Source of the DNA: Candidatus Obscuribacteraceae bacterium
GTDB lineage: Bacteria; Cyanobacteriota; Vampirovibrionia; Obscuribacterales; Obscuribacteraceae
Reading direction: 5' to 3'
Length of the DNA: 64,000 bases
Assembly (NCBI GenBank): GCA_044226015.1
Contig: JBGAHS010000003.1
Coordinates: 256,001 to 320,000 of the forward strand
Position numbers and translations under genes: made by a program. This document shows, piece by piece, positions 2,150 through 36,021 of the stretch; position 1 is the stretch's first letter, and each line of letters opens with the position of its first letter. Below the pieces are notes generated by a model. The model saw only the letters and a list, made by a program, of their open reading frames with translations. It did no database searches and was not told the origin of the DNA.

Positions 2150-2653
2150 TTAGCTGAACAGGTTAGCGTCACGAGCTGAAGCTACGAGCCAGTTGATTGC
2201 ACCTGGTGTTGCGAGTCCGCCAGTTACACCGGCTGCTCCCCAGAGTACGCGCTTCATTGCGTCCTGCGTTCCTGCTGCCATGTGCATGAAGCCCATAATC
2301 ATTGTTGGTCCGCCCCAGGCAATTCCGAGAATTTCCATTCCGTTTGCGATAATGTTCAAAAGTGCTTCCAGGTTAGCGAGGTTGTTAACGCGCACTGTTC
2401 CTGCGGTGTTCACACCTTGAATCACGGTTGCATCAGCGCCTTGTGGTCCGATTGTACCGTTGGTTGCACCTTGCAACATAGGGGCTGCGGTGCTTCCGCC
2501 TTGCTGCGTCTGTGAGCCAGTGTAATTGCCAGTGTTGTTTGTTTGCGCGCCCGTGTCAGCTGTTGAATTGAACGCGTCTTGCGCTAATGCCGGACCGGCA
2601 AGAGTCAAAACGACCGCTGATGCCATTGTTATCTTTGCCAGTGTCTTAATCAT
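2150..2653 (-). CDS. VirB2/TrbC/Maff2-like pilin-type protein, copy 1 (167 aa)
   Basis: Signal peptide (...GPALA|QD), T/N/G/Q-rich linker, then two hydrophobic helices (LNIIANGMEILGIAWGGPTMIMGF; VLWGAAGVTGGLATPGAINWL) joined by a short charged loop (QDAMKR). Start set by alignment with the paralogues (MIK). Confidence 0.7.
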   Translation of the reverse strand: MIKTLAKITMASAVVLTLAGPALAQDAFNSTADTGAQTNNTGNYTGSQTQQGGSTAAPMLQGATNGTIGPQGADATVIQGVNTAGTVRVNNLANLEALLNIIANGMEILGIAWGGPTMIMGFMHMAAGTQDAMKRVLWGAAGVTGGLATPGAINWLVASARDANLFS

Positions 2654-2694
2654 GATAGTAAATTCTCTCTTTTCAAAATTTGTGGGTGTTCTTA

Positions 2695-2738
2695 ACTCGA
2701 ACTCTTCTTTAACGACCCATCCCAAACTCTTAGGAGGA
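2695..2738 (-). promoter_or_regulatory. 44-nt leader/promoter block identical to 15171-15214
   Basis: actcgaactcttctttaacgacccatcccaaactcttaggagga occurs upstream of copies 1 and 3, while the flanking sequence diverges. Confidence 0.7.
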
Positions 2739-2750
2739 ACTTTCATGATA

Positions 2751-2766
2751 TGTGACTAAGGTCATG
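2751..2766. promoter_or_regulatory. Palindromic operator-like site TGTGAC-TAAG-GTCATG
   Basis: Variant of the CATGAC-N4-GTCATG motif seen upstream of the other intact pilin-like copies, at the same ~98-nt offset as in copy 3. Confidence 0.65.
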
Positions 2767-2773
2767 GTCCAGC

Positions 2774-4225
2774 TCATTCCAAATCGTTGGCGCCATCTTG
2801 CACTGAACCAGACTCAGCGGCAAGAGGCGCTTCTTCCGATACAGACGAAGGATTCGCTACGGTCCTCTTGAAACCCCAGAAAAGCATTGCCGCATAAAGC
2901 GCCCCCCACCACAAAACAGTAGTTCCGCCAGGAAAGGCGAAAAATAAAGCCAGAAGCAACAAGGAGAACCCAAGACAAATAAGCTTCTGCCTGGAGGATG
3001 GAGCCAACAAAGATGGAATCAACACATATGCGCTGATGAGCCAAATTCGCTGCATCTCGAAATCATGCATTGCCAAGGCCGTTCCAGGCTTTGACGGCAA
3101 CATCGAAAAACCAAAGGCAAAACCAAGAATCCATGGCGCTGCTAACATCGCTAAGCCAAGCAGCCATGCTCTCCTGAACAGAACAACAAAACCTGCAAAC
3201 GTCGAGACCAAATACAAATTCATCAGCAAACCAGGCTGATAGAATCCATCTACTAGCCAGTCGTCGTTTGCAGCTGGCACTCCGGGAGGTAGCTTTCGAA
3301 AAGGGCGAAAGTTCCCAAATCGAACATCTTGAGTGTTAAAAACGAAATCACCTTGCAGTTCACTTCCCCTGTATCGATGAGCTGAAGCGAGGTCGGGCAA
3401 CAAGGGTCCTAAGACTTTCGATTCTTTTAGACCAGGCAAGTAGTCTGGCACTTTAGCAGAACCAATGATACCTGCAAGAAGGTTTGCTTTACCCGAACTA
3501 GCTACGAGACAGTGGTCCACATCTACCATGCCATCGAGTGGTGGAACAGCACCCGTGTGACAATCGACCGCAGGAAAGAAAAGCTCATCAGGATTCTTCG
3601 GCTCATACCACCAGACTAACGGCTCTTGCGGCTCTGCTGTTGAGTTATTGTTAAAACAACAAAGAGCAAAGGTCCAACCTGGATACCAGCGCTCGTAAGC
3701 ATCAAAAATAGCCTGATTCAAGTCGGGTCGTTTTTCCTCAGGTACTCGTTGTAGCGCGGTCGGAATAGCCTTTGCAGAGTTCGAAAGAACAACTGTGTAG
3801 CTTCCTTTGTTAAAGACTTCAATATGAACATGACTATCCATGCCATTCGACACGGAATTGGTTTGCATCAAGACACTGTCTAAAGAATCTAGCAACGCAC
3901 TTGATGTATCACGGCAAGACTTATAAAGGTCGTGAGCAATTCCCCGGAACTGCCTGCCATCGAACATATTGTCCTGCGACATAGAGTTCGGAATGGCCGG
4001 AATTGGCAAAATCATCGCATTAGGACCAACGCCAAGGTTTCGCGCGGTGTTGGAATAATAAAGCAGATGCTTGAGCTTTCCCTTATCTTCATACTCACTT
4101 ACCCATCCAACGGTCTGCATTAGCTCGGCTGGATGGAGAGAACAACATGCTTGAGCTTGATGAATTATTCCCAGAGCCAGACCCAAAAGCATAAGGAAAG
4201 ACAATACGTACTTCTTGCCAATCAT
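2774..4225 (-). CDS. Hypothetical exported protein with C-terminal multi-pass membrane region
   Basis: Long ORF with N-terminal signal-like segment (AQA|CC), globular core (YSNTARNLGVGPNAMILPIP...) and about 5 C-terminal hydrophobic helices. Confidence 0.75.
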   Translation of the reverse strand: MIGKKYVLSFLMLLGLALGIIHQAQACCSLHPAELMQTVGWVSEYEDKGKLKHLLYYSNTARNLGVGPNAMILPIPAIPNSMSQDNMFDGRQFRGIAHDLYKSCRDTSSALLDSLDSVLMQTNSVSNGMDSHVHIEVFNKGSYTVVLSNSAKAIPTALQRVPEEKRPDLNQAIFDAYERWYPGWTFALCCFNNNSTAEPQEPLVWWYEPKNPDELFFPAVDCHTGAVPPLDGMVDVDHCLVASSGKANLLAGIIGSAKVPDYLPGLKESKVLGPLLPDLASAHRYRGSELQGDFVFNTQDVRFGNFRPFRKLPPGVPAANDDWLVDGFYQPGLLMNLYLVSTFAGFVVLFRRAWLLGLAMLAAPWILGFAFGFSMLPSKPGTALAMHDFEMQRIWLISAYVLIPSLLAPSSRQKLICLGFSLLLLALFFAFPGGTTVLWWGALYAAMLFWGFKRTVANPSSVSEEAPLAAESGSVQDGANDLE

Positions 4226-4438
4226 AACTCTCCAAAAACGCAAGGGACACTATATATGGTGGCACCAGCAATAAACACAAAACAGGCTCTCAATAATAGC
4301 ATCAGAAAGCGTTTGAAGATCGAGTGCGACTTCCATGCGACACAAGTAATTTCCAAAATTCTCATTTACAAAATCGATTTATTTGAGGTGGCAGAGGAAG
4401 CCAATCGCAGGAATCCAATCTTTGGTGGAACACGAGAC

Positions 4439-4894: not shown

Positions 4895-5026
4895 TTCAAA
4901 ACCTCCAGTTCGTTATCTATGCGAACTAGAATAGCCACCAATTCGGACTACCTTGTCCTTAGCTTGTCCCCAAAATGTCCTCGTCGCTGAACTTTACATA
5001 GCTGCTATACTCGCACCAGAAAGGAT

Positions 5027-5356: not shown

Positions 5357-5518
5357 ACTACAGATGTTTCTTCTGAGCCCAATGTGTCAGCATCTGTGAC
5401 TTTCTCTATAGTCGGCAATGGTCACGTAGGTGGATACAAGCTCCGGACTGCTGGAAGCATGGAGATAAATAACACTGCGGTTTTGTGGCAAACCAAAGAC
5501 AAAAGCTAACAACCAAGC

Positions 5519-5544
5519 AAAAAGGAGGCGCTTGTGACACCTCC
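5519..5544 (-). terminator. Intrinsic terminator of pilin-like copy 2
   Basis: Minus strand reads GGAGGTG-tcacaag-CGCCTCC-TTTTT. Confidence 0.7.
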
Positions 5545-5575
5545 CTTCTGCGGTATGAGTGAACTGTGAAAAAAA

Positions 5576-5899
5576 TTAGCTGAACAGATTAGCGTCACGA
5601 GCTGAAGCAACGAGCCAGTTGATTGCACCTGGTGTTGCGAGTCCGCCAGTTACACCGGCTGCTCCCCAGAGTACTCGCTTCATTGCGTCCTGCGTTCCTG
5701 CTGCCATGTGCATAAAGCCCATGATCATTGTTGGTCCGCCCCAGGCGATTCCGAGAATTTCCATTCCGTTTGCGATAATGTTCAAAAGTGCTTCCAGGTT
5801 AGCGAGGTTGTTAACGCGCACTGTTCCTGCGGTGTTCACACCTTGAATCACGGTTGCATCAGCGCCTTGTGGTCCGATTGTACCGTTCCCCGCCGCCAT
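5576..5899 (-). pseudogene. 5'-truncated pilin-like copy 2 (no signal peptide or promoter; possible silent cassette or signal-less variant)
   Basis: Homology to copy 1 stops abruptly at 5887. The in-frame ATG at 5897-5899 lies in an unrelated GC-rich repeat. The core protein is identical to copies 1 and 3. Confidence 0.7.
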
Positions 5900-5932
5900 G
5901 CGAGACAGCCCCCGCCGCCTTGCCAGACAGCC
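5888..5932. repeat. GC-rich 22-bp direct repeat x2 (plus a degenerate third) at the truncation junction
   Basis: cccgccgccatgcgagacagcc / cccgccgccttgccagacagcc. Confidence 0.8.
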
Positions 5933-6121
5933 TCCCTGCCAGGCCGCCAGCTAGCCACGCAGCAAGCATCAAGCCGGAAAGGCTTCGAGCCGGGCAGTTC
6001 ATTGATCCACCCCAGTTTCTACCTATAAATGCAGCCCACTCTCACTTGGAATTCACCCCCTTGGCTATACCCTTCTCATGTCAGGTTGTGTTTTTTCTCT
6101 CTGGTTCCCGTGGTGAAAGAT

Positions 6122-9100
6122 TTGGCTGAGCAGGAGCTAAAACTCCACAGAGTCCCCGAATTACTTGGACAGAGCAATTCCGAGGATGATAGTGCACTCA
6201 ATGTTTTCACGCGTTCGCTTGCCTACTCTGCAGCAGTTGGTCCGTCAATTGCCATTGGCGAACTTGCGGACAAAGTTGCAAGTAAACTGACTGACTCGCA
6301 ACAATCCATCTGCACCGACACCGTGAAGAGCGTCGCCCAGATGGCTGGAGTTCAAATCAGCCCAGAACAATATTCAATGGGCTCCGCGAAATGGCAGGCA
6401 CAGCAGTTGGGCAATGCAGTCGGCATGCTTGTACCTATGACTCTCCTACACAAATCTCTGGCGCCAGCTCTTCCAGCATCTGCCGGTTTGCGATCAGCCA
6501 GCAGCGGCTTCGCCTACGGAGCAATACTCACTCCCACCAATTTAGATTCAAGCTCCAGCTTGGCTGATTTACTCGCTGCAAAAACGGAAAAAGGAATTTT
6601 TACTTCATTGACCTTCGGTGTTATGGGCGCCAGCGCTTCCCGCATCGAGAATCTTCTAGCAAACTCCAAAGTCACAAACACAGTCGCAGCCGTACTTCCA
6701 GAGATCGCAAGCGTCCATGGCACCAAGCTAGCAGCTGGTGTTCTTAGTGCGATTCCGGGGGGAGTAGTGAGTGCTCAAACAACCGCCTGGGAAAGAGGGG
6801 ACAGAATCGCGAGCCTGCAGGACACGACAGAATCAATAGCTTCCCTGGCCTATGTCGGTGGTGTGTTCGGCGCGGCAAACTTTTTCGCTACCAAACCAGC
6901 AAGCAAGGCAAAACCAGAACAACAGGTATCTACATCTGAAATTCCCAACGTAATCGATACACACCGCTTCATTTTAGAAGAACCCGGCTCCAGAGGGAGG
7001 CTTTCAGGGGACTGGATGGAAACATTGCCCAGGTCAAAAGATGACCCCTTCAGCAATTGCTCAAGTCTTTCTCATCGAATTGGCATCTATAAAGAAGACC
7101 GAATCTCAAACTACTTTCAAGATGAACGAGAGTCAGAGTACGGGCTGAAACAGATGTACTTTGAACACAACCAACTAAAGTATTTTCCTGATCGATCGTT
7201 CGCTAGCCTGATAAAAAAGAGTCCGCTCATAGATAGACAATTCGATGACTCTAGCGCTCGAAATTCACTTCACCTCAAGTACTACAAACTCTACCCGGGT
7301 GAGCCTGGTGTGTCACTAAGGACGCGAGGATCCATTCTTCAGAGTTCAGGAATTACCGAACAAGAATTAGCTGGTCTCATAAAACAACACCTTAATACAG
7401 AAATACAGAATTCATCGCCAGACACACAGAGTAAAGCGATCGATTTCTTCCTGCGCACAGATTTTCCTCCTAGAAGACTTGTTGATCTTGTCCCTCTGGT
7501 GGATGAGAGATTGCTTCATTCGCTGACGCAGACCGAATTAAGAGTTGACCAACAGGACACTATTATTGAGAAATGGAACTCTCTAAGCGAGAAGACAAAG
7601 GAAATGCCTCTGCCTGTTCTGGCAAAGCTATTGAATTACCAAAACGCCTTAACTGAAGAACAGCTCGCTAGCCCGCACGTGCAAGAATATGCTGAACTAT
7701 TACATGAACTTGATTATCACGCTAAGGGTTACGAACATAATCTCGACGATCAATTCATTCGGTTTTATAGCGACCGGAAGCTTAGCTCAGCAGAGGCGGT
7801 TGGGGTCTTGCGCAGCTGGAAGGAACTTACTCCCGATGTAAAACTTCTTCCCAATGAAACGCTGGCTCCCATCGCATACAATTACCACTTAATGACGCCA
7901 GAGCAGCGCTTATTGCCCGTACCAGAACTGTCACGTTACACCAAGATAATTGACGATCTTCAGTTACAAGAGAATGGTGTAAAACAACTGAATAGCGAAT
8001 TTGCAGACTGGTATATCGCTAACTCACCAAGCGTTGATATGGCTCTGTTTGGCTTGAACAAATGGACCGAGTTATCGCCGGAATTGCGCAATCGTTTACA
8101 CGAGCCAGAACTCAAAGACAGAATACATGACCTACAAAGGCAATGGAAAAATCTATCACCTGAGCATCGTAGCTCAACCGGAACCAAGGCTCTTAATTGG
8201 GCTCATTTACGCGCAAATCTAGATGTACCAAGCTCAGCGATTCCAGAAGACTACTTAAGCTGGTACACAGTCAACAGACCCTCAAGAGCAGAAGCGCGTA
8301 AAGTATGGAGAGGCTGGAAAGAGTTTACTCCTGCTGTAAAAGCAATGGATGCTCCTTTGTTGTTTTTTCTGGCTGAGCACTGGAGCGATATTCCGACTGC
8401 CCAGAGGCAGCTCGAACCTAAGGAAATAATTCGGCAACTGAATTTGAGCGGCGAAATTGGCAAACCCCTGAACACAATTGACCCTGAGTTTGTGGAGTGG
8501 CATCGACAAAACGAACCAGCAAAAAAGGATTTGCGAATTCTGGAACGAACATGGGCGGACTTACGCAGTGATCTAAAAACCATGAAAGGCGATGATCTTG
8601 CTTGCATTGCCCGTATCTGGTCAAAACTAAATGACGAACAAAAGACGCGTCCACAGGCTGAACTTTTGCACTGGTCAAAATATTACGAAGCGCTAGGAAC
8701 CAAGCCACAGATCGAAGAGATAGTAAAAGAATCTCCAAGCTTCCGAAACTGGTTCGAAAAGAACAGTACCGATAACGGGCAGTCTATTCCTAACGTATTC
8801 GCTCACTGGAGCGATCTGACACGCGAACTTAGAGACCTTGGTCTAAAAGAAACCAGCGAGCTGATAGCTACTATGTTCTCTCAGCCAGGAAGAAATACGG
8901 CTGGAATAATTCGCGGATTGGAACTTACCGAACTGAGTTCAGGGAAAGACCCGGAGGCAGCTAAGAAACTGCTAGCTTCTCTTAAGAATGGCAGCTCAAT
9001 CACAGACTGGGTCGATGGAGAGGCTCAACGAATGGGGCTTTCGCAACTAGATCTTCTGGACAAAATGACAGCCATTTCTAGAATGAGCAGATCATTTTTT

Positions 9101-11494
9101 CTTGAAGATGCGCCCCTTGCTGAACTACCTAAAGAGCTTGTGGACAAGATGCTTCGTCTACCACTCTGGAAGTTGGAACCTGCTGTTTCCCTCTGGCAAA
9201 ATCAGGTGCGCCGTAACCTGGGGAATGTCTTGTTTACAGACAGAGCATCTGCAGGTCTTGAGGACGTTCCGCTTGTGAATGATGGCATCGAAGGTATCAA
9301 GAAATGGAACGAAACCGTAAACAACAGAGCATTTCTCGACGAGTTTTACTCGCAACTAGATGAGGCAACTGCAGCTGGCAGAGATGCGCAACTCAGCTCG
9401 TCTTCAAGCCCCTACATGGTAGTCAGACAATACTTCCCTGATCTCGAACCAGGATACGTAAACATCCTTGTTCAAAGCTTGCAAGGAGTAAGCCGGCCGA
9501 AAGACTATGTCGAGAGAATACAGCCTACTGAAATTAGAAATGCACTTCGGCGAATTAGTTTTTCGACTGATGCGAAACAGAACGCATTCGAAAAAACCGG
9601 TATTTTAGTTGCTGGCAACAACTCCTGGGTCAATGCTCAAACGGGTCATGACGGGCGCGCGGTGGTCGCGATGAATCTCCTTTCAGTTTTTGGGAAGCAG
9701 TGGGGACGTTGGCTCGATCTCCAGACCCTGAAGCACGCATTGAATTTAGAGGGTGACACAAAAGCCCGCGAAACACCCAACACTGATGAGCTAGACGAGC
9801 CAATAACAACGGAGCCTCTAAACGTGGCTCAAGCTGTCAGAGGCATGAGCGATGCAAGAAAGGCTGAACTTTTTGGCAGCCTCAGCGAATCACAAACGCA
9901 CACAGCAATACATGATGCCATGTGGATGCTTCAAAAAGTAAAGCGAGAACATGCCGAATGTTTATCGCAATGGTTGTTCAAATATTTTGATCGAGACCCT
10001 GCAGAATTGGGAGTTGTGAACAAAAGATGGCACCGCCTCGAAAGCTCATTTCGCACAGCTCCCTACAGATATGCGGACGTAGTGAATGCAGCAAAGTCGC
10101 ATAACTACGAGAACATTCAACATTCAGAGTTTGCAAAAGAAGCAGCCAAATGGGGCGTTTCCGAAGAGCGCTATCCTGAGTATGAACGCCGCTTTCTGGA
10201 CTCACAAAATTCACCTTTGCCATTTCCTCTAGATAAAGCATGGAAAGTAGGAACATATACAGGAAGGTTTCTGCCCCGCGCTGACGTTCGTGGTGTTTTT
10301 CTTGGACAACACTCCACCTGCTGCCAACACCCAGACAACTCAGCTGGTAATAGCGCCGCGTGGATGGGGCAAGAGCACCCTGCTGCGGGTTTCTTCGTAG
10401 TGGAAAGTGCAACAAAAAAAATTGTTGCACAGTCACTTGTTTGGCAATCAGATAACGGCGGTTTGGTTTTTGACAGCATCGAAGGCAAAAGACCAAAATT
10501 AGTTGAATTGGAAGCCGACCAAAACGCAGCTGCGCAAAACGCGTTAGCACAAAACGCGGCAGCACAGGACGAAGGCGCACAAGACGCAGCTGCGCAAAAC
10601 ATAGCCGCACCAAACATTGGAGCACAAGCAGACACAAGGAATGCAGGCGCGCAGGGTGCAAGGGCTCAAAACATAGGCGCACGACAAGCGGGCGCACAGA
10701 ATACAGGTGACACCGCAAATGGTACCACTGCCCAAGAGAAGAGCAATGAGGCAAAAGCAATCGAACACCTAAAGAAAACGGTGTCCGACATTTATGATGC
10801 AGCAGCAAAAGATCTGATCAAGGACTACTCTAGAATATCCGTCGGCGTGGGGCAAAGCGCAGGAAAAAGTATTGCTGATTTCGATCGCTGGCAAGCAAGC
10901 GAAGCCGAGGAGATCATGGAGACGCCGAAAGATTATTCCGGCTATTCAGATGCAAGAAAGAAGCAGCTTACGATAGCCACAAACGAAAATCCAGTTCAAG
11001 CAGAACCGACTACCCAGGCTAAAACGTGGACTCGTGCCGCAACGCCAACTGACCTGGTTAGTGCCAAGAAGATTGCAGAAGCAGTCTATCCAAGGGGATG
11101 GAACTTTATCTCTCCAGGAGATTGGAATAGGGTTTTGCAATCTAAAGAGAAAGGCGTGATTGGATATGCAACCATGGACACGCGTTCTCACTACATTACT
11201 GACGTTGCGGTACTGCCAGAGTATGGTGGCAAGTCCGTCTTGCTTTTGCGAGATATTCTTTCTGAAGTGAAGCGAATAGGTGGCAACTGGAAAGCGAACG
11301 CTCGCGCAAGCACTTCCTATGAGCTCTTGAAGCGAGCAGAGGCTCTCCGCTGGATCCAGATTGATAGAGAGATTCATCGTCCAGGAATAATGAGCGGCGA
11401 AGACATGTACGACATAATCTTCCATGTACCAGACAGACAAAGAAACAACAACGCGGCAGCACAAGCAAACGAAGCTACAGCTAACACGCAGTAA
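6122..11494 (+). CDS. Large (~1790 aa) multidomain protein: hydrophobic N-terminal domain, ~80-aa Trp repeats, CCQH-motif domain, C-terminal GNAT-like domain
   Basis: 5.4-kb ORF with an uncertain start (TTG 6122 preferred; track start 6029). GNAT-like VIGYATMD...YITDVAVLPEYGG...ANARASTSYELL. Confidence 0.8.
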   Translation: MAEQELKLHRVPELLGQSNSEDDSALNVFTRSLAYSAAVGPSIAIGELADKVASKLTDSQQSICTDTVKSVAQMAGVQISPEQYSMGSAKWQAQQLGNAVGMLVPMTLLHKSLAPALPASAGLRSASSGFAYGAILTPTNLDSSSSLADLLAAKTEKGIFTSLTFGVMGASASRIENLLANSKVTNTVAAVLPEIASVHGTKLAAGVLSAIPGGVVSAQTTAWERGDRIASLQDTTESIASLAYVGGVFGAANFFATKPASKAKPEQQVSTSEIPNVIDTHRFILEEPGSRGRLSGDWMETLPRSKDDPFSNCSSLSHRIGIYKEDRISNYFQDERESEYGLKQMYFEHNQLKYFPDRSFASLIKKSPLIDRQFDDSSARNSLHLKYYKLYPGEPGVSLRTRGSILQSSGITEQELAGLIKQHLNTEIQNSSPDTQSKAIDFFLRTDFPPRRLVDLVPLVDERLLHSLTQTELRVDQQDTIIEKWNSLSEKTKEMPLPVLAKLLNYQNALTEEQLASPHVQEYAELLHELDYHAKGYEHNLDDQFIRFYSDRKLSSAEAVGVLRSWKELTPDVKLLPNETLAPIAYNYHLMTPEQRLLPVPELSRYTKIIDDLQLQENGVKQLNSEFADWYIANSPSVDMALFGLNKWTELSPELRNRLHEPELKDRIHDLQRQWKNLSPEHRSSTGTKALNWAHLRANLDVPSSAIPEDYLSWYTVNRPSRAEARKVWRGWKEFTPAVKAMDAPLLFFLAEHWSDIPTAQRQLEPKEIIRQLNLSGEIGKPLNTIDPEFVEWHRQNEPAKKDLRILERTWADLRSDLKTMKGDDLACIARIWSKLNDEQKTRPQAELLHWSKYYEALGTKPQIEEIVKESPSFRNWFEKNSTDNGQSIPNVFAHWSDLTRELRDLGLKETSELIATMFSQPGRNTAGIIRGLELTELSSGKDPEAAKKLLASLKNGSSITDWVDGEAQRMGLSQLDLLDKMTAISRMSRSFFLEDAPLAELPKELVDKMLRLPLWKLEPAVSLWQNQVRRNLGNVLFTDRASAGLEDVPLVNDGIEGIKKWNETVNNRAFLDEFYSQLDEATAAGRDAQLSSSSSPYMVVRQYFPDLEPGYVNILVQSLQGVSRPKDYVERIQPTEIRNALRRISFSTDAKQNAFEKTGILVAGNNSWVNAQTGHDGRAVVAMNLLSVFGKQWGRWLDLQTLKHALNLEGDTKARETPNTDELDEPITTEPLNVAQAVRGMSDARKAELFGSLSESQTHTAIHDAMWMLQKVKREHAECLSQWLFKYFDRDPAELGVVNKRWHRLESSFRTAPYRYADVVNAAKSHNYENIQHSEFAKEAAKWGVSEERYPEYERRFLDSQNSPLPFPLDKAWKVGTYTGRFLPRADVRGVFLGQHSTCCQHPDNSAGNSAAWMGQEHPAAGFFVVESATKKIVAQSLVWQSDNGGLVFDSIEGKRPKLVELEADQNAAAQNALAQNAAAQDEGAQDAAAQNIAAPNIGAQADTRNAGAQGARAQNIGARQAGAQNTGDTANGTTAQEKSNEAKAIEHLKKTVSDIYDAAAKDLIKDYSRISVGVGQSAGKSIADFDRWQASEAEEIMETPKDYSGYSDARKKQLTIATNENPVQAEPTTQAKTWTRAATPTDLVSAKKIAEAVYPRGWNFISPGDWNRVLQSKEKGVIGYATMDTRSHYITDVAVLPEYGGKSVLLLRDILSEVKRIGGNWKANARASTSYELLKRAEALRWIQIDREIHRPGIMSGEDMYDIIFHVPDRQRNNNAAAQANEATANTQ

Positions 11495-14626: not shown

Positions 14627-14658
14627 AAAACCAAAGAGAAGAGCCGAGGCTCTTCTCT
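14627..14658 (-). terminator. Intrinsic terminator of pilin-like copy 3
   Basis: AGAGAAGAGC-cgag-GCTCTTCTCT hairpin with a T-rich tail on the minus strand. Confidence 0.75.
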
Positions 14659-14684
14659 CTGTTGGTATTGAGGCGTGGTTAAAA

Positions 14685-15128
14685 TTAGCTGAACAGATTA
14701 GCGTCACGAGCTGAAGCAACGAGCCAGTTGATTGCACCTGGTGTTGCGAGTCCGCCAGTTACACCGGCTGCTCCCCAGAGTACGCGCTTCATTGCGTCCT
14801 GCGTTCCTGCTGCCATGTGCATGAAGCCCATAATCATTGTTGGTCCGCCCCAGGCGATTCCGAGAATTTCCATTCCGTTTGCGATGATGTTCAAAAGTGC
14901 TTCCAGGTTAGCGAGGTTGTTTACGCGCACTGTTCCTGCGGTGTTCACACCTTGAATTACTGTTGCGTCAGCGCCTTGTGGTCCGATTGTACCGTTGGTT
15001 GCACCCTGCAACATTGGGGGCGCACCGGTATCAGCTGTTGAATCAAACGCGTCTTGTGCTAGAGCTGGTCCGGCAAGTGTCAAAACGACTGCTGATGCCA
15101 TTGTTATCTTTGCCAGGTTCTTAATCAT
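14685..15128 (-). CDS. VirB2/TrbC/Maff2-like pilin-type protein, copy 3 (147 aa, short linker)
   Basis: Same architecture as copy 1 but lacks 20 aa of the polar linker; identical C-terminal core. Confidence 0.7.
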   Translation of the reverse strand: MIKNLAKITMASAVVLTLAGPALAQDAFDSTADTGAPPMLQGATNGTIGPQGADATVIQGVNTAGTVRVNNLANLEALLNIIANGMEILGIAWGGPTMIMGFMHMAAGTQDAMKRVLWGAAGVTGGLATPGAINWLVASARDANLFS

Positions 15129-22344: not shown

Positions 22345-24246
22345 ATGAATCACAACACCAACGATAGCGATCATAAAGAGCGTTCGGAAAGACCCGAAAG
22401 CAAAACTGATCGTGTTGAGAAAAGAGCAGAGAACAGAGAGCGCGGCGAAGCCTGCATAGAGCTGGCAAACGGGGCTCTAAACAAAGACATTCAAGCCGCT
22501 ATTGTGGAAAAGCGTCTTTCAAGAAAGAGCGGTGCAACTGGCTATGGTGTAGCTTCTGCTGATTCACTCTTGCCTCTGGATAAAAAGAGCAAAGGCAAAG
22601 TTTCCGTACCGGAAGGAATATCAGAGACGGAATACATCGCAGCAGTAAAGCAAGCTGAGGCACAACAGCAGGAGAAAACGCCAATAGCTTTGATCGCCCA
22701 GGGCGTTGAAAACGATCCATTCAACCAACAATCGAAGATCGTTAGCGATGGCAGCAGTTCAGTATCTCGGAGTAAGTCAGTTGATGCTGGACTGGAAGAT
22801 GCTAGGCAGCAGCTGCTAAAGGATGGGGCGCCATCATCACTAGTAGACTCGCTCAAACCGGAGCCAAAGAAACTAGAGGGCTATATCAACAATACGCCAG
22901 ACGTAAAAGAAAAGATCGAGGAAAGCCCAGTTTCGATGATGGCTAAAGCTATGGAGCCTGTGACAGATAGCTTTAGCAAGTTTACTGCCGAGTCAACGAA
23001 GCACCTACATAACATGATGGAGGAAGCTAAAGAAGCCTTCGGAATTAAGCCATCGGAAAAGCCTCACAACTCAATTAGCCCGGAAGGGTTTGCCGTTCTG
23101 CAATCCGTGGAGAGCCCTAGAGATGCTTCTCATGTGCTTGCCGGGGCTGTAACCGGGTTCGACAAAACAATTAATGAGGCAATGCCAGGACTTACACCAA
23201 GAGGAGCCTTGGAAGCCACAGCAGAATTAGGAAAGCGAATTGTTGATCGTGCTTTGCATCCAGCACCTGAAGCAGTTCTAGATCAGCTAAAGCATCAATT
23301 AGACCCAATCGGAGCCTTCAAGGACGACATCGCAAAGCTTGGAAAAAAATATGATCAGATGGTTGATTGGGCCGCTGATCGAAGTCAAAAGAGTTTTTCA
23401 GAGCGCGGAGAATCGGCAGGCAAAGCCGGTCCTGATGTTTTGATGGCTGCTGAGGGAATTGTGTTCATTGCCAAATCAGGTGAATGGATCACTCGTGAGA
23501 ATGCTATTAGAGCAGGACTAGAGAAGCTCACCCCAGAAGAATTGAAAGAGCGCGGAATAACAAAAACAACAGTGGAGCACATGAAGCCCGAAGACATCGT
23601 TAATCCGATTGATAGGAACGCTTCTCCGGAAGAGAAGATTAGACAATTGCAGAAACTATCAGCTGAGAATCAGCCGTTGATTGAGGACTTCAAGAACCAG
23701 GTTGATTCCAAATATGGAAGCTTTTCATATGGAGAACCAAAAAAGCCGCAAGACATACTCGACAAACCACAAAGGCAAGAAGTACGCGAAAAGTATCCGT
23801 GGTTCGAAATTGAACATGTTAGAGACTCGCAGAGATTCACAACCGTTGTTGATAATTTGGATGCACTGCCAGCGATTGCGAAGGACCTGAAAGAAAGTGG
23901 GTTCCAGGTGATTGATGCACCTATCTCCAAAATGGAACCAAATAAACGAGGCTGGAGAATGATGCCGTTTGACCTTCGTGCGCCAAATGGTCAGCTCATT
24001 GAATATCAAGTCTTGTTCAAAGAAATGGCTGAAGCCGGTCGAGTAACTCACCCAATTCACAAAAAATGGCGTGGTAGTGAGTCATCTGAACTGTCAAAAT
24101 CAGACAAAATCTTGAAGCAGACAGACTTTGTGACTGCACGTGATACTTGTAATGCAGCTTGGGATGCGTATTTGAAGCGTACCGGACAAAACGCAGAACA
24201 CATTAGGACAATATTGGAACAAGTTCAAAACATATTGAGGCAATGA
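22345..24246 (+). CDS. Putative polymorphic toxin with C-terminal RelA/SpoT synthetase-like (nucleotide pyrophosphokinase) domain
   Basis: Ordered motifs K-x6-K-x2-R, VRDSQRF, PNKRGWR, IEYQV and THPIHKKWR at ~23730-24075, after a long N-terminal region. Confidence 0.7.
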   Translation: MNHNTNDSDHKERSERPESKTDRVEKRAENRERGEACIELANGALNKDIQAAIVEKRLSRKSGATGYGVASADSLLPLDKKSKGKVSVPEGISETEYIAAVKQAEAQQQEKTPIALIAQGVENDPFNQQSKIVSDGSSSVSRSKSVDAGLEDARQQLLKDGAPSSLVDSLKPEPKKLEGYINNTPDVKEKIEESPVSMMAKAMEPVTDSFSKFTAESTKHLHNMMEEAKEAFGIKPSEKPHNSISPEGFAVLQSVESPRDASHVLAGAVTGFDKTINEAMPGLTPRGALEATAELGKRIVDRALHPAPEAVLDQLKHQLDPIGAFKDDIAKLGKKYDQMVDWAADRSQKSFSERGESAGKAGPDVLMAAEGIVFIAKSGEWITRENAIRAGLEKLTPEELKERGITKTTVEHMKPEDIVNPIDRNASPEEKIRQLQKLSAENQPLIEDFKNQVDSKYGSFSYGEPKKPQDILDKPQRQEVREKYPWFEIEHVRDSQRFTTVVDNLDALPAIAKDLKESGFQVIDAPISKMEPNKRGWRMMPFDLRAPNGQLIEYQVLFKEMAEAGRVTHPIHKKWRGSESSELSKSDKILKQTDFVTARDTCNAAWDAYLKRTGQNAEHIRTILEQVQNILRQ

Positions 24247-30173: not shown

Positions 30174-31808
30174 ATGAAGACCTGGAGTCCCGCTGAGAAA
30201 AATCGCTCACAAAAGCTTGCTTTAACAGCAATTGCTCTTGCCATAGGCGCACACTCATTTCTCGCGGCACCTTCTGCACTTGCTCGCGAAGATCTCTCCG
30301 ACGCAGAGAAACAAATCGAGCAACTATCGACCGAAATACTCCTCCATGAGATAGATTTTGAGCGCTGTTATCTTCAATACAGAATGTACGGCACGAAAGA
30401 TCCAAAATACAGACGTATGCGCTACTTTCTGTTGCAATTGGCGGCTGGAAGTACAGGACTGGCGTCGAACATTCTCTTCACGAAAGTAGCAAAAGAAGCC
30501 ATTCATTCCAATGAAGCCGACTTCGGAAAAGGTGATGCTAACATCGATAGCAGCAGCACCAACAGCAACTCGGAACTAAATTCGCAAAGCAACGAGGAGA
30601 CGGCAAGCTCTCAGCCGTCGACAGCAAGCAAAGCTACGGAGACAACAACGCCAACAATTGCCACCACTGGCAACACCGAAGACTTCACGATAAAAGAGCT
30701 GAAAAGTGCTTTCATTTTGTCTATTGTTGCAACCGCACTCGACGCCTCCAGCTCACTAATTGAAATGAGCTCGAACGGCTATACAGCAATAAAGAACATA
30801 AAGAAGAAACTGAGCCCAAAAGACTCTGTAAATAATACAAAATCTCGCATCGAGACAATCGACGCTCTGTTCGCTAAGCGCCAGGAATTGATAGATCGCA
30901 ACCCCGACTCAAGTCGAAACGGCGTAAACGCAGCTGAAACACGCGTACTCAAGAATTATAGAGATTGGTGCCTGGCCGAGTACGCCGATGTTTACGCTAC
31001 AGTGAAATCATCACAATCGAGTTATAACATTTACTATGCTATCGATATGGCATCAGCAGGTTGGTATTTAGCATCTTCCGCGCTTGGGCTTAAAGCGCTA
31101 AACGCCAAGCACGAAAAACTTGGAGGACCGGCTTGCTACACGGCTATCGTCGGAGACGGGTTGGGCATCACAGCAGTACCGCTCAGCACCTGGGGTGGTA
31201 ACTGGCTTTACAGCTACTATCGCAACAAACTGAAAAAACAGTTGAAAGAAGAATTGAAAGACACCGAAATTGAAGCCAAAGCCTCTCTCGAGAATTTGAA
31301 CAAAGAGCTTGCCTCAGCTGACATAGGCTTGCTTGAGTCAACAAAATCTTTGCGCGATCGCATCGCTGTGTACGTGCTCTGGTACTCGCGCTACGATAAG
31401 AATCTCAGCAAGCAAATCGCTGAACTCAGACACCAGGCTCGCGTGGCACACCAGGGATTGATCGCAGGTCCGCTGATTTCGGGGTCCTATCTGGCGGCAG
31501 ACATTCTTGCTACAGTAGCCTTCTATGGCGTACCAAATCGTCCGAGAGCTGGGGCTACATTGACATACGCGGGTGGAGTTTCCGGCACCGCCGGAGCTGG
31601 TTTCACCATTGGCTTGACGAATTACATTCTTGCCAACGAGCTACTTCATAGACGGAAATTGAAGAAACAAAATATTCTGCCCTCACAGTTACTTGCAGAA
31701 AGACTAAAAACACTAGAAGACCTCGAAGGAATTCTGAGCAAGAACAACTCCAGGCTTCCAGATGGGAAACAAAGGGTTCCCAAAAACCCCTTTGCTGAGG
31801 CAAAATAG
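30174..31808 (+). CDS. Hypothetical exported helical protein
   Basis: 544-aa ORF with a signal peptide (ALA|RE), S/T-rich insert and alternating coiled-coil and hydrophobic hairpins. Confidence 0.8.
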   Translation: MKTWSPAEKNRSQKLALTAIALAIGAHSFLAAPSALAREDLSDAEKQIEQLSTEILLHEIDFERCYLQYRMYGTKDPKYRRMRYFLLQLAAGSTGLASNILFTKVAKEAIHSNEADFGKGDANIDSSSTNSNSELNSQSNEETASSQPSTASKATETTTPTIATTGNTEDFTIKELKSAFILSIVATALDASSSLIEMSSNGYTAIKNIKKKLSPKDSVNNTKSRIETIDALFAKRQELIDRNPDSSRNGVNAAETRVLKNYRDWCLAEYADVYATVKSSQSSYNIYYAIDMASAGWYLASSALGLKALNAKHEKLGGPACYTAIVGDGLGITAVPLSTWGGNWLYSYYRNKLKKQLKEELKDTEIEAKASLENLNKELASADIGLLESTKSLRDRIAVYVLWYSRYDKNLSKQIAELRHQARVAHQGLIAGPLISGSYLAADILATVAFYGVPNRPRAGATLTYAGGVSGTAGAGFTIGLTNYILANELLHRRKLKKQNILPSQLLAERLKTLEDLEGILSKNNSRLPDGKQRVPKNPFAEAK

Positions 31809-32224: not shown

Positions 32225-32325
32225 ATGACGCTGAAGTCGCTTCAAGAGCAACGGGCGATTAAGCGATCTAAATTGCTTCTGTTGAGAATATGTTCTATCT
32301 TTTTCTCATCGATTTGGGAGGCATA

Positions 32326-33177
32326 ATGAATACGCTCTGGCACGCAGTTTTGCTCATCATCGCTTTTGTAGGTGTGGCACTGCTAGGACAATACCTGGTC
32401 AACAAGCGTGTCAAAAGAGAAGTTCTCGAACTCCATCACAGTGCTGGCGAAGCAATGATGGGTGTTGTTGGAACCCTCTTTAGCGTACTTCTCGGCTTCA
32501 TGGTGGCAGGTGCCATGGACAAATACCACGATGCAATGATTCGTGGCGAAGACGAAGCGAGCAATGTCGCCAGTGTGTTTCGTATTGCCAGGGGACTTTC
32601 CGACACAGACAGACCACGAATCAGACAACTTTGTCGTGATTACGTTGATGATGTAATCAATTCAGAATGGCCAAAGATGGAGCAAGGAATCAAAGTAAAT
32701 CATGGCTGGGTAGTGTACCAGAAGCTCTGGGAAGCGGTTGTGGCTACAGTTCCAGAAAACGACAGGCAGAGCAATTTGCAACAGGGCATCATCTCATCAA
32801 TGCAAAGCCTGGGAGAAAATAGACGTGCAAGAATTTTGCTTGCACAGAAACAAACTCCACCTGCACTCTGGGCGGTAGTAGCGGTTGGAGCTTTCATCAC
32901 GCTCGCCTTGAGCTATGTTTTTGCCTCTCAGTTCCCCAAAGTACAGGGCTTCATGACCACCCTCGTAGCCACGGCTCTGGCTTTGAACATATGGCTTCTA
33001 GCTGCATATGCGCACCCCTATAGCGGCGAACTGAAAATACAGCCAACGATGTTCCAGCTCTTGAAAGATTCCATTCTCACCGTTCCAGACGGTCCATCAC
33101 GATATCTTCACGACACACCCGCAGAAGCTGCAGCGTCAAAAGCACTGGAAGAAACAGCGGCTAGCAAAGAGAAGTAA
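32326..33177 (+). CDS. DUF4239-like membrane protein
   Basis: VGTLFSVLLGF, EA..V..VFR, YVDDVINSEWP and ..HPYSG motifs; 4 TM helices. Confidence 0.82.
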   Translation: MNTLWHAVLLIIAFVGVALLGQYLVNKRVKREVLELHHSAGEAMMGVVGTLFSVLLGFMVAGAMDKYHDAMIRGEDEASNVASVFRIARGLSDTDRPRIRQLCRDYVDDVINSEWPKMEQGIKVNHGWVVYQKLWEAVVATVPENDRQSNLQQGIISSMQSLGENRRARILLAQKQTPPALWAVVAVGAFITLALSYVFASQFPKVQGFMTTLVATALALNIWLLAAYAHPYSGELKIQPTMFQLLKDSILTVPDGPSRYLHDTPAEAAASKALEETAASKEK

Positions 33178-33253
33178 TATTCAGAAGATTGTATTCAGAA
33201 AAGCCGATTGCTACAAACACAACAAACCCGCTGACTCAGTCACGGCGATACAA

Positions 33254-35335
33254 TTAGCGTGGTGCGTTTAGAGTGCTAAACACAAACAAAAGAAACAAGA
33301 CTATGATGATTCCTAGCGCAATGAAATTACCTTTGTAGCGCATAAAGAAATTCTCTCTCTTTACGTTCTGCAGCGCGCCCATGTACTCCGCTAAAACAGG
33401 GTCAGTCTGACTTCTTACTGCAATACTCTCTGGCAAGGTCCAGGTTTTTGCATCATAAATTTTGGAGTCAGAGTAATCTTTGCACGCCTTCATCAGCTTG
33501 GAAGGTGTTACCTTTGAAAGCATAATATAGAAGCCTTTTACAGCCTCGCCATAGCGACTAACGTTATCTAGAATTTGCGCAGCAACTTCGTCATTCACCA
33601 TAGGAGCCAAAATCAGGACGAGAATATGTTGATGTCCTCCCAAAATATCAGGCACCACTTTCGCTACCACATATGCTTCGGTGATGAGTTTTTCAAAGCG
33701 CAGTAGAAAGCACAGCTCATCAACTTGCTCGGGCGTCAACTTGTGCGGGAGATAGACATCATCACTTGCAACACTGTTCCAGCAGCGCGAAGCATCATCA
33801 ATTTCCCTCGAAATTTTCAGGCTCTTCTGGTAATACACCTGGGCTTCTTCTTCGCGGCCTCTTGATAAAAGATAGCGACGCACAGCGGTGAATGCTTCGG
33901 GTCCGTGCAACGGTTTTAGCGCAACAGCCTTTTCAAGCTCGCCAATGCCCTCATCGGTTTTCTCACTCAACAGCAGTAGCCCAAGGCTATAGTGCAAATA
34001 ATCACAGTTGGGATGAAGCGCCAACAATGCGCGATGTTTATCGATAGCCTCCGCAGGTTCTGCCATGCCGCTGCATAAGGCAGAAAACTCTTGTGCCTCA
34101 GCTAAACTAAGCGGTCCCTCTTGCAATAGCTTTTCGAGGGCTTCCATACGCTCACGACTTATGACAGCAAATTTGTGCTTCTCTTCCCAAGCAGCTCTAA
34201 TGGTGTTCAAAAAATGCTCTTCCAGCCGGGCTTCAGCAGCAGGAAGAGCAGAGCCAAAGAGGTCCTCGGCAGCAGTTTCTTTTAGATAGAATCTCTCTGC
34301 GGCCTCTATCGCAACAAGTTGCGGCTGGCTCCAATCACTGTCGGGAAGCAGGGCTTTTAATCGTTCTGAGAGAGCGGGGTGAGAGTCGTCAGACGCATGC
34401 TTAGCCCAATCTGCTATCAAAATTTCCTCTGCCCTACTCAACTCAATATTTGAGTCCAAACATTTTCGCAGCGACTTCATCGGATTTGCTGGCGGTAAGG
34501 CCTCGTAGTAAACGCTTTTCCAGTACTTGTCCCAGAAACGTTCTTGCAAAAACTCACCCTTCAAAGCGGTCTGAATCAGAGCCTCAGCAGCACTCTCTGG
34601 ACCGGCAACCTCAGCCGAGATTCTGTCGGCGGCATATTCATGTTCTCGCCGCAATACCATACTTTTGGCCTCAAACATTGGCAAAAACCAATTCGCAAAA
34701 TTGCGAATCAATCCAACTCCCATTGAAGTTTGAGTAGCAAGATTGAGATAAGTTTGCGCCCAGGAGAGCTGAACATGATAGACCCAGCACCCCAGCTTCC
34801 CGTGCTGACTGGAGAGGTGCCCCATCTCATGCGCGAGAATCGAACGAAATTGCCTGGTGCTTACTGATTGCAACATGGGCAATCCCAATATCAAAATATT
34901 CTTGTGCCAACCAAAAATTCCAAGTCTTGGAAATTGGGAAATGGCACAGTTGAACCGATCGTTCATTAGCACCTTATCGATTTTCACACCCTTTGTGGTG
35001 CTGGTAAGTTTGTCGATAAGGTCAAATAGTTTAGGAGCATCGTTGCGATGCAAAACAATTCCATCAGGCTCAGAATATTTGACCCAGAGCGACTTTACTA
35101 TCATCCACACTGCGATAAGAATCAGGAAGGAGAACTTGATCAAAATCCAGACATGAAAAACGAAAAGAAGCCCCAGCAGCAGTAGGACTCCGAAGAGCAA
35201 AAACACAATCAAACCAAAAATGTAAGCATAGCCAAGTAGCGCAAAGCGAACTACGTGATTCCTGTAGCCCGTGGGGTCTTGTTTGGACATGACTTCGAAA
35301 TCGCTTACAATTCGATCAAATTCATCGTCGTACAT
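33254..35335 (-). CDS. M48 (HtpX/Ste24-like) metallopeptidase with TPR-like extension
   Basis: ILAHEMGH, REHEYAAD and SHPALSERL motifs; N- and C-terminal TM helices. Confidence 0.9.
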   Translation of the reverse strand: MYDDEFDRIVSDFEVMSKQDPTGYRNHVVRFALLGYAYIFGLIVFLLFGVLLLLGLLFVFHVWILIKFSFLILIAVWMIVKSLWVKYSEPDGIVLHRNDAPKLFDLIDKLTSTTKGVKIDKVLMNDRFNCAISQFPRLGIFGWHKNILILGLPMLQSVSTRQFRSILAHEMGHLSSQHGKLGCWVYHVQLSWAQTYLNLATQTSMGVGLIRNFANWFLPMFEAKSMVLRREHEYAADRISAEVAGPESAAEALIQTALKGEFLQERFWDKYWKSVYYEALPPANPMKSLRKCLDSNIELSRAEEILIADWAKHASDDSHPALSERLKALLPDSDWSQPQLVAIEAAERFYLKETAAEDLFGSALPAAEARLEEHFLNTIRAAWEEKHKFAVISRERMEALEKLLQEGPLSLAEAQEFSALCSGMAEPAEAIDKHRALLALHPNCDYLHYSLGLLLLSEKTDEGIGELEKAVALKPLHGPEAFTAVRRYLLSRGREEEAQVYYQKSLKISREIDDASRCWNSVASDDVYLPHKLTPEQVDELCFLLRFEKLITEAYVVAKVVPDILGGHQHILVLILAPMVNDEVAAQILDNVSRYGEAVKGFYIMLSKVTPSKLMKACKDYSDSKIYDAKTWTLPESIAVRSQTDPVLAEYMGALQNVKRENFFMRYKGNFIALGIIIVLFLLFVFSTLNAPR

Positions 35336-35465
35336 AATGCACCTGACTGCTCTGATACAACATACCAAGCCTCGCCCGCAGAGCAACATCCTTGGAAAGT
35401 GTTTTTTGCAGCAGATCAGCAACAGGGTCTATAACTGGGGGTTCAAGCAAGCGCCCCAAGATAGC

Positions 35466-35490
35466 AAAGAGGGGAGCTTTCGCTCCCCTC
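35466..35490 (-). terminator. Intrinsic terminator of pilin-like copy 4
   Basis: GAGGGGAGC-gaaa-GCTCCCCTC-TTT on the minus strand. Confidence 0.75.
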
Positions 35491-35517
35491 GACAACTTTC
35501 GCATTCGCTTCGCGTTT

Positions 35518-36021
35518 TTAGCTGAACAGGTTAGCGTCACGAGCTGACGCAACTAGCCAGTTGATACAACCTGGTGTTGCTAGACCACCAGTTACGCCTG
35601 CTGCACCCCAGAGTACGCGTTTCATAGCGTCCTGTGTACCAGCAGCCATGTGCATGAAGCCCATAATCATTGTTGGACCGCCCCAAGCAATACCGAGAAT
35701 TTCCATTCCGTTCGCGATAATGTTGAGCAATGCTTCCAAGTTAGCAAGGTTGTTTACGCGCACTGTACCTGCGGTGTTCACGCCTTGAATAACGGTGGCA
35801 TCAGCGCCTTGTGGTCCGATTGTGCCGTTGGTGGCTCCCTGTAACATTGGAGCAGCTGCGCTTCCACCTTGCATTGTCTGTGAGCCTGTGTAATTTCCTG
35901 TATTCTGTGTTTGATTACCGGTTGCAGCGGTCGAATCAAAAGCATCTTGTGCGAGTGCTGGTCCAGCGAGTGTCAGAACCATTGCCGATGCCATAGTAAG
36001 TTTTGCGACGTTCTTAATCAT
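35518..36021 (-). CDS. VirB2/TrbC/Maff2-like pilin-type protein, copy 4 (167 aa)
   Basis: Most divergent copy at DNA level; core differs only by GAINW>GCINW; strong AGGAG RBS. Confidence 0.7.
   Translation of the reverse strand: MIKNVAKLTMASAMVLTLAGPALAQDAFDSTAATGNQTQNTGNYTGSQTMQGGSAAAPMLQGATNGTIGPQGADATVIQGVNTAGTVRVNNLANLEALLNIIANGMEILGIAWGGPTMIMGFMHMAAGTQDAMKRVLWGAAGVTGGLATPGCINWLVASARDANLFS

Follow-up and report, generated by a model that had tools for sequence, protein, structure and literature searches.

Several described systems come close to the proteins that we discuss here. The pilin-type proteins of type IV secretion systems (T4SS), i.e., TrbC/VirB2/TraA pilins (PF04956), DUF4134/TraE, DUF2976, DUF3852, and Maff2, have a cleavable signal peptide and a hairpin with a short charged loop. 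Other families of proteins with VIT and VWA domains end in a sorting signal, and Streptococcus sanguinis reportedly has modular type IV pilins (PilB and PilC) that carry a VWA or lectin module. Here we consider four genes in a 64,000-nucleotide stretch of the genome of a Candidatus Obscuribacteraceae bacterium. This stretch, which we call the window, is C6:256001-320000 of an 8.19-Mb genome in 13 contigs (C1, C3, C6, and so on are contigs of this genome). A sequence-only reading had described the four genes as paralogs of a VirB2/Maff2-like pilin-type gene with an invariant core. It overlooked that the core belongs to a modular C-terminal domain, which occurs on its own in these genes but also at the end of hundreds of larger proteins, and that this domain is an order-wide, order-restricted, and chromosomal trait of the Obscuribacterales. 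The resemblance to pilins appears to be one of design, not homology.

A profile of the domain matched all 101 of the Obscuribacterales genomes that we sampled, from all 35 genera, with 1-22 matches in each (short and long forms together), and the short copies are often in tandem arrays across the order. Outside of the order, a sample of 300 other genomes from the phylum gave one match, which was weak and interrupted by stop codons. In large protein collections, there were 1049 short relatives, all of them "hypothetical" and from Candidatus Obscuribacterales or Melainabacteria bins, as well as 552 longer proteins that end in the domain, many of them with VIT and VWA families from Pfam. With clustering at 50% identity, an exhaustive profile search returned 537 clusters, of which 344 had E <= 1e-10. 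Among the best 150 of these 537, nearly all have the domain at the very C-terminus of the protein (80-1190 residues).

The arrays also share a place on the chromosome. We clustered the open reading frames (ORFs) from 20 array loci in other genomes and from two regions of our own genome (22 loci). On one side of most loci are an HtrA-like protease, an IMPDH-like gene, AnmK, and a CxxCxxCC protein, followed by the array; on the other side are a ThiF-like gene, a small gene with a weak, sub-threshold match to VWA7_N, an RNase T/WYL gene, and a TPR gene. Taken singly, these clusters of flanking genes occur in 12-16 of the 22 loci; among the 20 loci from other genomes, 19 have one or more of them. 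This housekeeping slot is conserved across at least 17 genera. Our genome keeps both flanks, with one boundary inside the window and the other outside it (Table 1), but unrelated genes have been inserted between them and have stretched the array to about 46 kb. This is why the copies look "dispersed." It was also suggested that such genes are normally single-copy inside conjugation operons, which does not describe genes in a housekeeping slot that is unlinked to T4SS genes.

All four genes are present at the coordinates that had been given, on the minus strand, and, as had been noticed, their last 103 residues are identical apart from one change from Ala to Cys in copy 4 (GCA>TGT, in PG[A/C]INW). 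The synonymous differences are unevenly spread. Over the last 103 codons, any two of copies 1-3 differ by 6-8 synonymous changes and zero replacements (dS of 0.08-0.11), so these are recent duplicates or products of gene conversion, while between copy 4 and any of these there are 30-34 synonymous changes (dS of 0.55-0.67). In the genome as a whole, there are eight close copies: C6 has six, four of them in the window, and C3 has two. Among these eight paralogs, dN/dS is 0.004-0.04, and for pairs outside of copies 1-3, dS runs from 0.55 to saturation. The eight copies therefore combine old duplicates, which are under extreme purifying selection, with a single local expansion that is recent. The constraint extends across the order: for each of the 20 loci from other genomes, the best copy shares 93-100% identity with copy 4 across the 103 residues of the core, as compared to only 64-93% for the order's VirB4-like ortholog (discussed below). 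In a tree of the cores' DNA, most copies cluster with others of their own genome or genus, and close genomes share some orthologous pairs.

The four copies are not equally complete. It had been proposed that each is a stand-alone unit with its own terminator, and indeed the genes that separate the copies are unrelated cargo, and downstream of each copy is a GC-rich, terminator-like hairpin with a T-run that differs from the others. Copy 2, however, lacks both the signal peptide and the linker, and the DNA upstream of it is unrelated. Despite the truncation, the 6 differences between it and copy 1 are all synonymous, which could reflect either a very recent truncation, gene conversion, or continued use. 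Copy 1 most likely starts at 2653, and a longer frame that reaches 2746 is probably unused. The sequence-only reading also worried that the copies might be strain-chimeric products of assembly. In an independent DNA run from 2016, one contig spans the downstream flank and continues into copy 4, and a second contig starts inside copy 4 and crosses the upstream flank, with the break lying within the repeated core. Because these contigs join both flanks to the gene, copy 4 is not a chimera of a single assembly.

We predict that the short forms are highly expressed. Using a codon adaptation index with weights from 18 ribosomal-protein genes and a background of 2209 long ORFs, seven of the eight copies are in the 96.7-99.8th percentile, which is near the range of ribosomal-protein genes, whereas the long forms are around the 48th percentile. 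Copy 4 is covered by RNA contigs from two libraries of different studies (1-4 differences per contig), although this alone is not proof of transcription. Around it (window 33000-38000), RNA contigs gave one short piece, from run X7 (36690-36862), and we count the missing cover over most of the flanking genes as no evidence. The element CTTACTA occurs within 100 nt upstream (at 20-86 nt) of five of the seven full-length copies in the genome, with six occurrences; its genome-wide rate is 0.033 per kb per strand. Besides the site in the window, it is found upstream of C6:254151, C6:245741, C3:86502, and C3:79012. It is not found upstream of the T4SS-like genes or of the rpoB2 genes, and no upstream k-mers of at least 7 bases were common to at least 5 of 6 copies. 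The recent copies that start at 2653 and 15128 carry a different leader, which is common to both. Overall, eight copies with ribosomal-protein-like codons and extreme purifying selection fit the earlier proposal of an amplified structural subunit.

The full-length product has a Sec-type signal peptide (MIKN...LAGPALA/QDAF, with the slash at the predicted cleavage site, ALA/QD), a linker of 20-45 residues that is rich in N, Q, T, and G, and the 103-residue core. The domain (about 105 residues) is predicted to comprise a conserved juxtamembrane helix and a two-helix hydrophobic hairpin. With a 61-sequence alignment, AlphaFold2 (AF2) predicts a helix for the signal peptide, a disordered linker, a helix at 83-126, a 5-residue loop, and a helix at 132-162. 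The helices of the hairpin have pLDDT above 90, and the loop (TQDAM) is short and basic. The C-terminal end (...ARDANLFS) lacks a basic tail. The hairpin is predicted to be N-out/C-out, with the motifs GTVRVNNLANLEALLN and PGxINWLVASARD on the periplasmic side. Cleavage of the signal peptide would leave the N-terminus, the conserved pre-helix, and the C-terminal motif in the periplasm, with the basic loop in the cytoplasm. In the wider family, there is a near-invariant GTVRVNNLANxEAxxN before the first hydrophobic helix and a PGxxNWxxAxxRD after the second, and the hydrophobic helices are variable. The short subfamily is the exception, as all of its positions are fixed. Because this tight conservation includes the lipid-facing positions of the hairpin, it suggests that all of its faces make contacts, as in the subunits of a filament or ring. 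As an aside, the linkers of 60 members contain 1.65 N-x-S/T sequons each, versus 0.74 in shuffled linkers (an example is at 35842-35950, minus strand). This hints at glycosylation, but it is a weak test, as the members are related.

As for the longer proteins, those of our own genome (Table 1) begin, reading by eye, with several membrane helices, after which comes a VWA-like region. The VIT domain (PF08487) matches in two of the three long forms (on C9 and C4). The long forms also have sub-threshold matches to TIGR04477, TIGR02921, and TIGR04286 from NCBIfam, in the VIT region only (37-83 bits versus a cut-off of 250). By eye, the C9 long form has about five N-terminal helices, a number that would place its VIT-VWA part and its domain in the same orientation as in the short forms. 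Another protein (458 aa) has the domain in its interior, and the 200-residue domain that comes next has no match in Pfam. The protein is encoded about 3.2 kb past the end of the window, is alone in its 50% cluster, and is probably a lineage-specific fusion rather than a general component. Ser/Thr kinases adjoin copy 3 and lie near all three long forms, but this adjacency is uninformative because the genome has at least 150 matches to Pkinase (PF00069) in its 8.19 Mb, which is an unusually large kinome.

What might the four genes encode? The explanation that we favor, although we would give it somewhat less than an even chance, is a pilin-type structural subunit, VirB2-like in design rather than in sequence, that self-assembles, possibly with a VirB4-like machine. 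The stand-alone, multi-copy domain would insert as a hairpin and would self-assemble in or from the inner membrane, with the short forms forming homo-oligomers or polymers. The long VIT-VWA forms could co-assemble through the shared module as subunits that bear cargo or adhesins. Assembly might be served by one of two VirB4-like machines that appear to be fixed in the order.

As the sequence-only reading reported, the window itself contains no T4SS or pilus genes, at least among the 42 larger ORFs that we scanned with Pfam. It also proposed looking for secretion machinery elsewhere in the genome, and a divergent VirB4-like locus with a coupling protein is present on C10, so its proposal is not refuted by a lack of such machinery. 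The usual model for VirB4 (PF03135) has no matches in this genome and matches in just 2 of the 101 genomes from the order. The C10 cluster includes a two-helix VirB3-like protein (114 aa), a VirB4-like ATPase (952 aa) that matches PF19044 (P-loop_TraG, 59.8 bits), AAA_10 (35.4 bits), and TraC_F_IV (27.8 bits), a bitopic protein (215 aa), and a coupling protein (T4CP, 1047 aa, PF02534). Also on C10 are genes for a 1201-aa polytopic protein and a 142-aa exported hairpin protein. Orthologs of the VirB4-like ATPase are found in 100 of the 101 genomes, with the range of identities given above, and most have a paralog of about 33% identity as well. Outside of the order, there are distant matches (23-28% identity) in 8 of 95 genomes from the class. 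In a relative (G316), the C10 cluster is conserved and is joined by a 1305-aa polytopic protein with a weak match to TrbL_4 (E = 0.0026). The locus of the second VirB4-like ATPase has a weak PrgI/VirB3-like neighbor. In our genome, this paralog has 2 in-frame TAA codons, which leave frames of 699 and 193 aa, so the gene may be disrupted here, whereas that of G316 is intact (917 aa). The order does, then, have fixed machines of the conjugation type, which the usual model for VirB4 overlooks, and there appear to be two of them.

Two other sets of genes should not be confused with these machines. First, the relative G309 has two near-identical, canonical Trb-type operons (TrbB, TrbC, TrbD, TrbE, and TrbI), but these are probably mobile elements that are distinct from the order-wide machine. 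Second, we considered TrbI/VirB10-like ORFs as partners of the domain. Weak matches of this kind are present in 60 of 61 genomes from the order but also in 74 of 121 genomes from the class, so they are not specific, as they are found in orders without the domain. They are stand-alone ORFs (240-400 aa, 20-45 bits) without a canonical T4SS nearby. The neighborhood of the second rpoB (C11:706080) contained no T4SS genes by Pfam.

The 142-aa exported protein, which we call module P, lies beside the polytopic gene of the T4SS-like locus and is 87% identical between genera. The AF2 model has a signal peptide, a linker, and a helix-loop-helix, with low confidence (mean pLDDT of 60, from four sequences). 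We found one stand-alone copy in our genome, and G316 has two adjacent paralogs in its T4SS-like locus. Module P also ends a 477-aa protein, which is the one such fusion that we saw. This protein is VWA-like by sequence alone, and it has a motif (LWIHGPQP) in common with the long forms of our domain. Module P has no similarity to TrbC or to any sequence in the Protein Data Bank (PDB). That there are two unrelated hairpin modules, each stand-alone and VWA-fused, with one of them in a machine locus, makes a pilin-type role for the other more likely.

There is also much that argues against a pilin-type role, beginning with the comparisons to known families. The Pfam and NCBIfam models gave no match to the domain, and a profile search of PDB gave a single chance match (E = 0.51). 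When the four proteins from the window were compared to PF04956, there was one sub-threshold match (E = 0.44, 11.2 bits, as compared to a gathering score of 27.9 bits), and it was over the signal peptide. A Pfam scan of 61 members of the family found scattered noise, with TrbC in 3 of the 61 (best E = 0.091), and a six-frame search of the whole genome with PF04956 gave no matches at E <= 0.01. As a control, the TrbC genes of G309, which are next to VirB4, match PF04956 at 61.6 and 56.8 bits. Comparing our domain to the TrbC of G309 gave a probability of 0.3% with hhalign (profile) and E = 0.86 with BLASTP. As for Maff2 (PF12750), it did not match any of the four proteins from the window at E <= 1, and it is not among the 25 most-matched Pfam families for the 61 members at the same threshold. 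Because the hidden Markov models and hhalign are negative while the TrbC of G309 is detectable, membership in TrbC/VirB2 or Maff2 is unsupported, even though the signal peptide, the hairpin, and the short basic loop that had suggested it are all present in the AF2 model.

Structure comparisons, which the sequence-only reading had recommended, gave matches of a general kind. Foldseek gave no matches at E <= 0.001 and only generic helical hairpins, and in a wide search with VIA against representatives, the best Z was 8.3, all of the matches were generic hairpins, and pilins were not among the matches listed. Helical models typically reach such scores by chance. A two-helix hairpin is too simple a fold to discriminate pilins from other hairpins. 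The sole pointer to pilins is from a language-model atlas, in which the named clusters that come nearest belong to small pilin-type families from conjugation systems (DUF4134, DUF2976, TrbC, T4SS_pilin, DUF3852, DUF6750, and Maff2). Their scores are 0.79-0.83, and scores below 0.9 count as leads only; the lead to Maff2, for example, is a score of 0.80 to a cluster in which 24% of the members carry Maff2. The proteins do not resemble type IV pilins: they have a Sec-type signal peptide with an AxA site and a C-terminal hydrophobic hairpin instead of a class III signal (G/FxxxE) and a single N-terminal helix, and there was no Pfam match to pilins. Our full-text searches of the literature for Obscuribacterales pilins or highly expressed hypothetical proteins found no paper on this family.

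Genome context counts against a pilin-type role as well. The array is between housekeeping genes, with the VirB3-like and VirB4-like genes on another contig, and where listed positions could be compared by eye, the array never adjoins VirB4-like genes. The T4SS-like locus already holds its own candidate for a small subunit, module P, whose hhalign probability against our domain is just 0.5%. The co-distribution of the domain and the machines within a single clade is not independent evidence. Finally, unless they are cleaved, the N-terminal helices of the long forms would hold them in the membrane.

A broader version of the favored explanation is that the domain belongs to an order-defining, chromosomally fixed filament or conduit organelle. 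This organelle would be derived from conjugation-type machinery, with two types of ultra-conserved hairpin module that have no sequence relationship to VirB2 (the multi-copy domain and module P) and with VIT-VWA "modular pilins" that end in these modules and bear adhesive parts or cargo, and it might perhaps be related to the attachment and predation apparatus that has been proposed for the sister lineage Vampirovibrio. We consider this to be unlikely as a whole.

The main rival to the pilin-type subunit is a T4SS-independent homo- or hetero-oligomer or scaffold in the inner membrane, made of the hairpin and the pair of periplasmic helices. It would anchor variable N-terminal parts and display them in the periplasm, be they a short tail rich in N, Q, and T or VIT-VWA domains, with the short forms as the bulk subunit. 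We view it as a real possibility, nearly equal to the explanation that we favor. It would account for the presence of the module on VIT-VWA proteins at the place that sorting or anchor signals occupy in related proteins, and for an array in a housekeeping slot that is unlinked to T4SS-like genes. Also, the most conserved columns of the wider family are the periplasmic juxtamembrane motifs, not the membrane helices. On the other hand, a scaffold leaves it unexplained why short forms from different genera are 93-100% identical, membrane helices included, or why eight copies have ribosomal-protein-like codons, and the parallel with module P in a T4SS-like locus points to those machines.

We think it quite improbable that the domain is a cleavable C-terminal sorting signal, like PEP-CTERM, LPXTG, or GlyGly-CTERM, that is recognized and removed by a dedicated enzyme, which would then link the N-terminal part to the envelope. 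It does have the same position as the sorting signals of related VIT-VWA families, and each genome has many small, low-complexity paralogs that carry it. (PEP-CTERM proteins also include many small, low-complexity paralogs per genome.) But the domain has about 105 residues, two hydrophobic helices, and no basic C-terminal tail, and the NCBIfam models for sorting domains do not match it. If it were removed, then the part to be discarded would be the ultra-conserved part, and what remained of the short forms would be about 40-60 low-complexity residues. An obligate role for exosortase (PF09721) can be rejected, as it is found in 58 of the 101 genomes from the order (17 of 39 high-quality ones) and is missing from 43, versus 101 of 101 for the domain. 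Our genome has a single exosortase (83 bits), in a 548-aa open frame whose longest ORF with a start codon is 515 aa. Another candidate enzyme is the M48 peptidase: two of the genome's ten M48 genes are directly beside domain genes (on C4 and, in the window, downstream of copy 4), as compared to about 0.03 expected by chance. No M48 neighbor was seen at the 20 array loci from other genomes.

More improbable still is a highly diverged member of TrbC/VirB2 that was left behind by a mobile conjugation element. The topology and the size class fit, as do the weak leads from the language model, but true TrbC in the same order is readily detected while the family's models and hhalign are negative, and the slot is a chromosomal, housekeeping one in at least 17 genera for a family that is universal in the order. 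A membrane-damaging peptide (a hairpin like that of a holin, bacteriocin, or pore-former) is barely credible: the top matches from Foldseek and VIA do include the hairpins of the alpha-pore-forming toxins MakA and AhlB, with non-significant scores, but no immunity or export partner was noted among the neighbors that we examined, the domain is fused to VIT-VWA proteins, and identical cores in eight copies and near-invariance across the order are the opposite of what is expected for antagonistic peptides.

Table 1. Locations of the features discussed in the text. Plain numbers are positions in the window; other positions are prefixed with the contig, or with the relative (G309) and its contig.
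Feature	Location	Strand	Remarks
Copy 1	2150..2653	-	167 aa (full length); invariant core of 103 aa after a signal peptide and an N/Q/T/G-rich linker
Copy 2	5576..5899	-	5'-truncated, 107 aa; core only, without signal peptide
Copy 3	14685..15128	-	Full length, 147 aa; short linker
Copy 4	35518..36021	-	Full length, 167 aa; older paralog, Cys for Ala in PGxINW
Terminator-like hairpin and T-run	2090..2121	-	3' of copy 1
Terminator-like hairpin and T-run	5517..5552	-	3' of copy 2
Terminator-like hairpin and T-run	14632..14661	-	3' of copy 3
Terminator-like hairpin and T-run	35466..35489	-	3' of copy 4
CTTACTA element	36101..36107	-	86 nt upstream of the start of copy 4
M48-peptidase-domain gene	33254..35422	-	722 aa; directly downstream of copy 4; relevance uncertain
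CxxCxxCC-domain gene	39003..40301	-	Conserved slot boundary
Other slot boundary	C6:237254-242143		Upstream of the window
ORF among the copies	2774-4243	-	489 aa; no Pfam match
ORF among the copies	6029-11494	+	1821 aa; no Pfam match
ORF among the copies	22345-24246	+	633 aa; no Pfam match
ORF among the copies	30174-31808	+	544 aa; no Pfam match
Long form	C7:664808-668521		1237 aa; ends in the domain
Long form	C9:248904-251801		965 aa; ends in the domain
Long form	C4:152810-154492		560 aa; decayed copy of the domain
M48 gene beside a domain gene	C4:154670-155221		
Minimal form	C12:62548-62832		94 aa
Protein with internal domain	C6:323214-324590	-	458 aa; then a 200-residue domain
Exosortase	C6:353269-354021	-	Single
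C10 cluster	C10:63038-71720	-	DUF2225 gene, VirB3-like gene, VirB4-like ATPase, bitopic protein, T4CP, Replic_Relax; VirB3-like, VirB4-like, T4CP, and Replic_Relax genes at C10:63038-71022
VirB4-like ATPase	C10:67854-70709		
Polytopic protein and module P	C10:82068-86783		
Module P, stand-alone	C10:86355-86783	-	
Module P, at the end of a 477-aa protein	C1:953535-954968		
Second VirB4-like paralog	C1:183328-185706		May be broken
TrbI/VirB10-like ORF	C9:73471-73869		
TrbI/VirB10-like ORF	C10:34755-35162		
TrbI/VirB10-like ORF	C1:1274659-1274928		
TrbI/VirB10-like ORF	C1:210516-211022		
Trb-type operon of G309	G309:C1:68127-76724		
Trb-type operon of G309	G309:C1:154892-162934		

Four large ORFs that are inserted among the copies have no Pfam match (Table 1).

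The Obscuribacterales are non-photosynthetic relatives of the cyanobacteria and are common in activated sludge, soil, and water. The domain protein is among the most conserved, and probably among the most abundant, envelope proteins of this uncultured order, and it has no name, family, or known partner. The reuse of the domain on VIT-VWA proteins and the parallel with module P could lead to an undescribed polymer on the surface or in the periplasm, or to a new way in which large, adhesin-like proteins are anchored. If the organelle does exist, then it would be a new class of bacterial surface structure. A more practical point is that screens that rely on PF03135 will miss the conjugation-type machines of this lineage.

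Like the T4SS pilins with which we began, the domain protein would be an abundant small subunit whose hairpin has both ends predicted to be outside, and VirB4-like ATPases are present in the genome and across the order. Unlike them, it belongs to no family with sequence or profile similarity to a pilin, and its mature form is longer (about 143 aa), with a disordered linker of about 60 residues that is rich in N, Q, and T. Also, there are eight dispersed or tandem copies in a housekeeping slot instead of a single gene beside virB3 and virB4, the domain ends hundreds of larger proteins, and it is fixed in the order rather than being on mobile elements. The long forms share their overall build with the XrtN target (TIGR04477), PEP_integral (TIGR02921), and MSEP-CTERM (TIGR04286) families, which have N-terminal helices, VIT, VWA, and a C-terminal membrane module, and in those systems too the module ends many small, low-complexity exported proteins. 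There, however, the module is a short motif with one helix and a basic tail, while here it has two helices and about 105 residues. Module P has a signal peptide, a linker, a predicted helix-loop-helix, and both stand-alone and VWA-fused forms, as our domain does, yet there is no detectable similarity between the two, and module P is in a T4SS-like locus. Finally, in PilB and PilC of S. sanguinis, the shared part is an N-terminal type IV pilin helix that is processed by the prepilin peptidase, whereas here it is a C-terminal hairpin in proteins with a Sec-type signal peptide. The likeness is in the plan: one polymerization module is placed both on a small major subunit and on larger subunits with an adhesive domain (VWA), and our short and long forms may follow the same plan.

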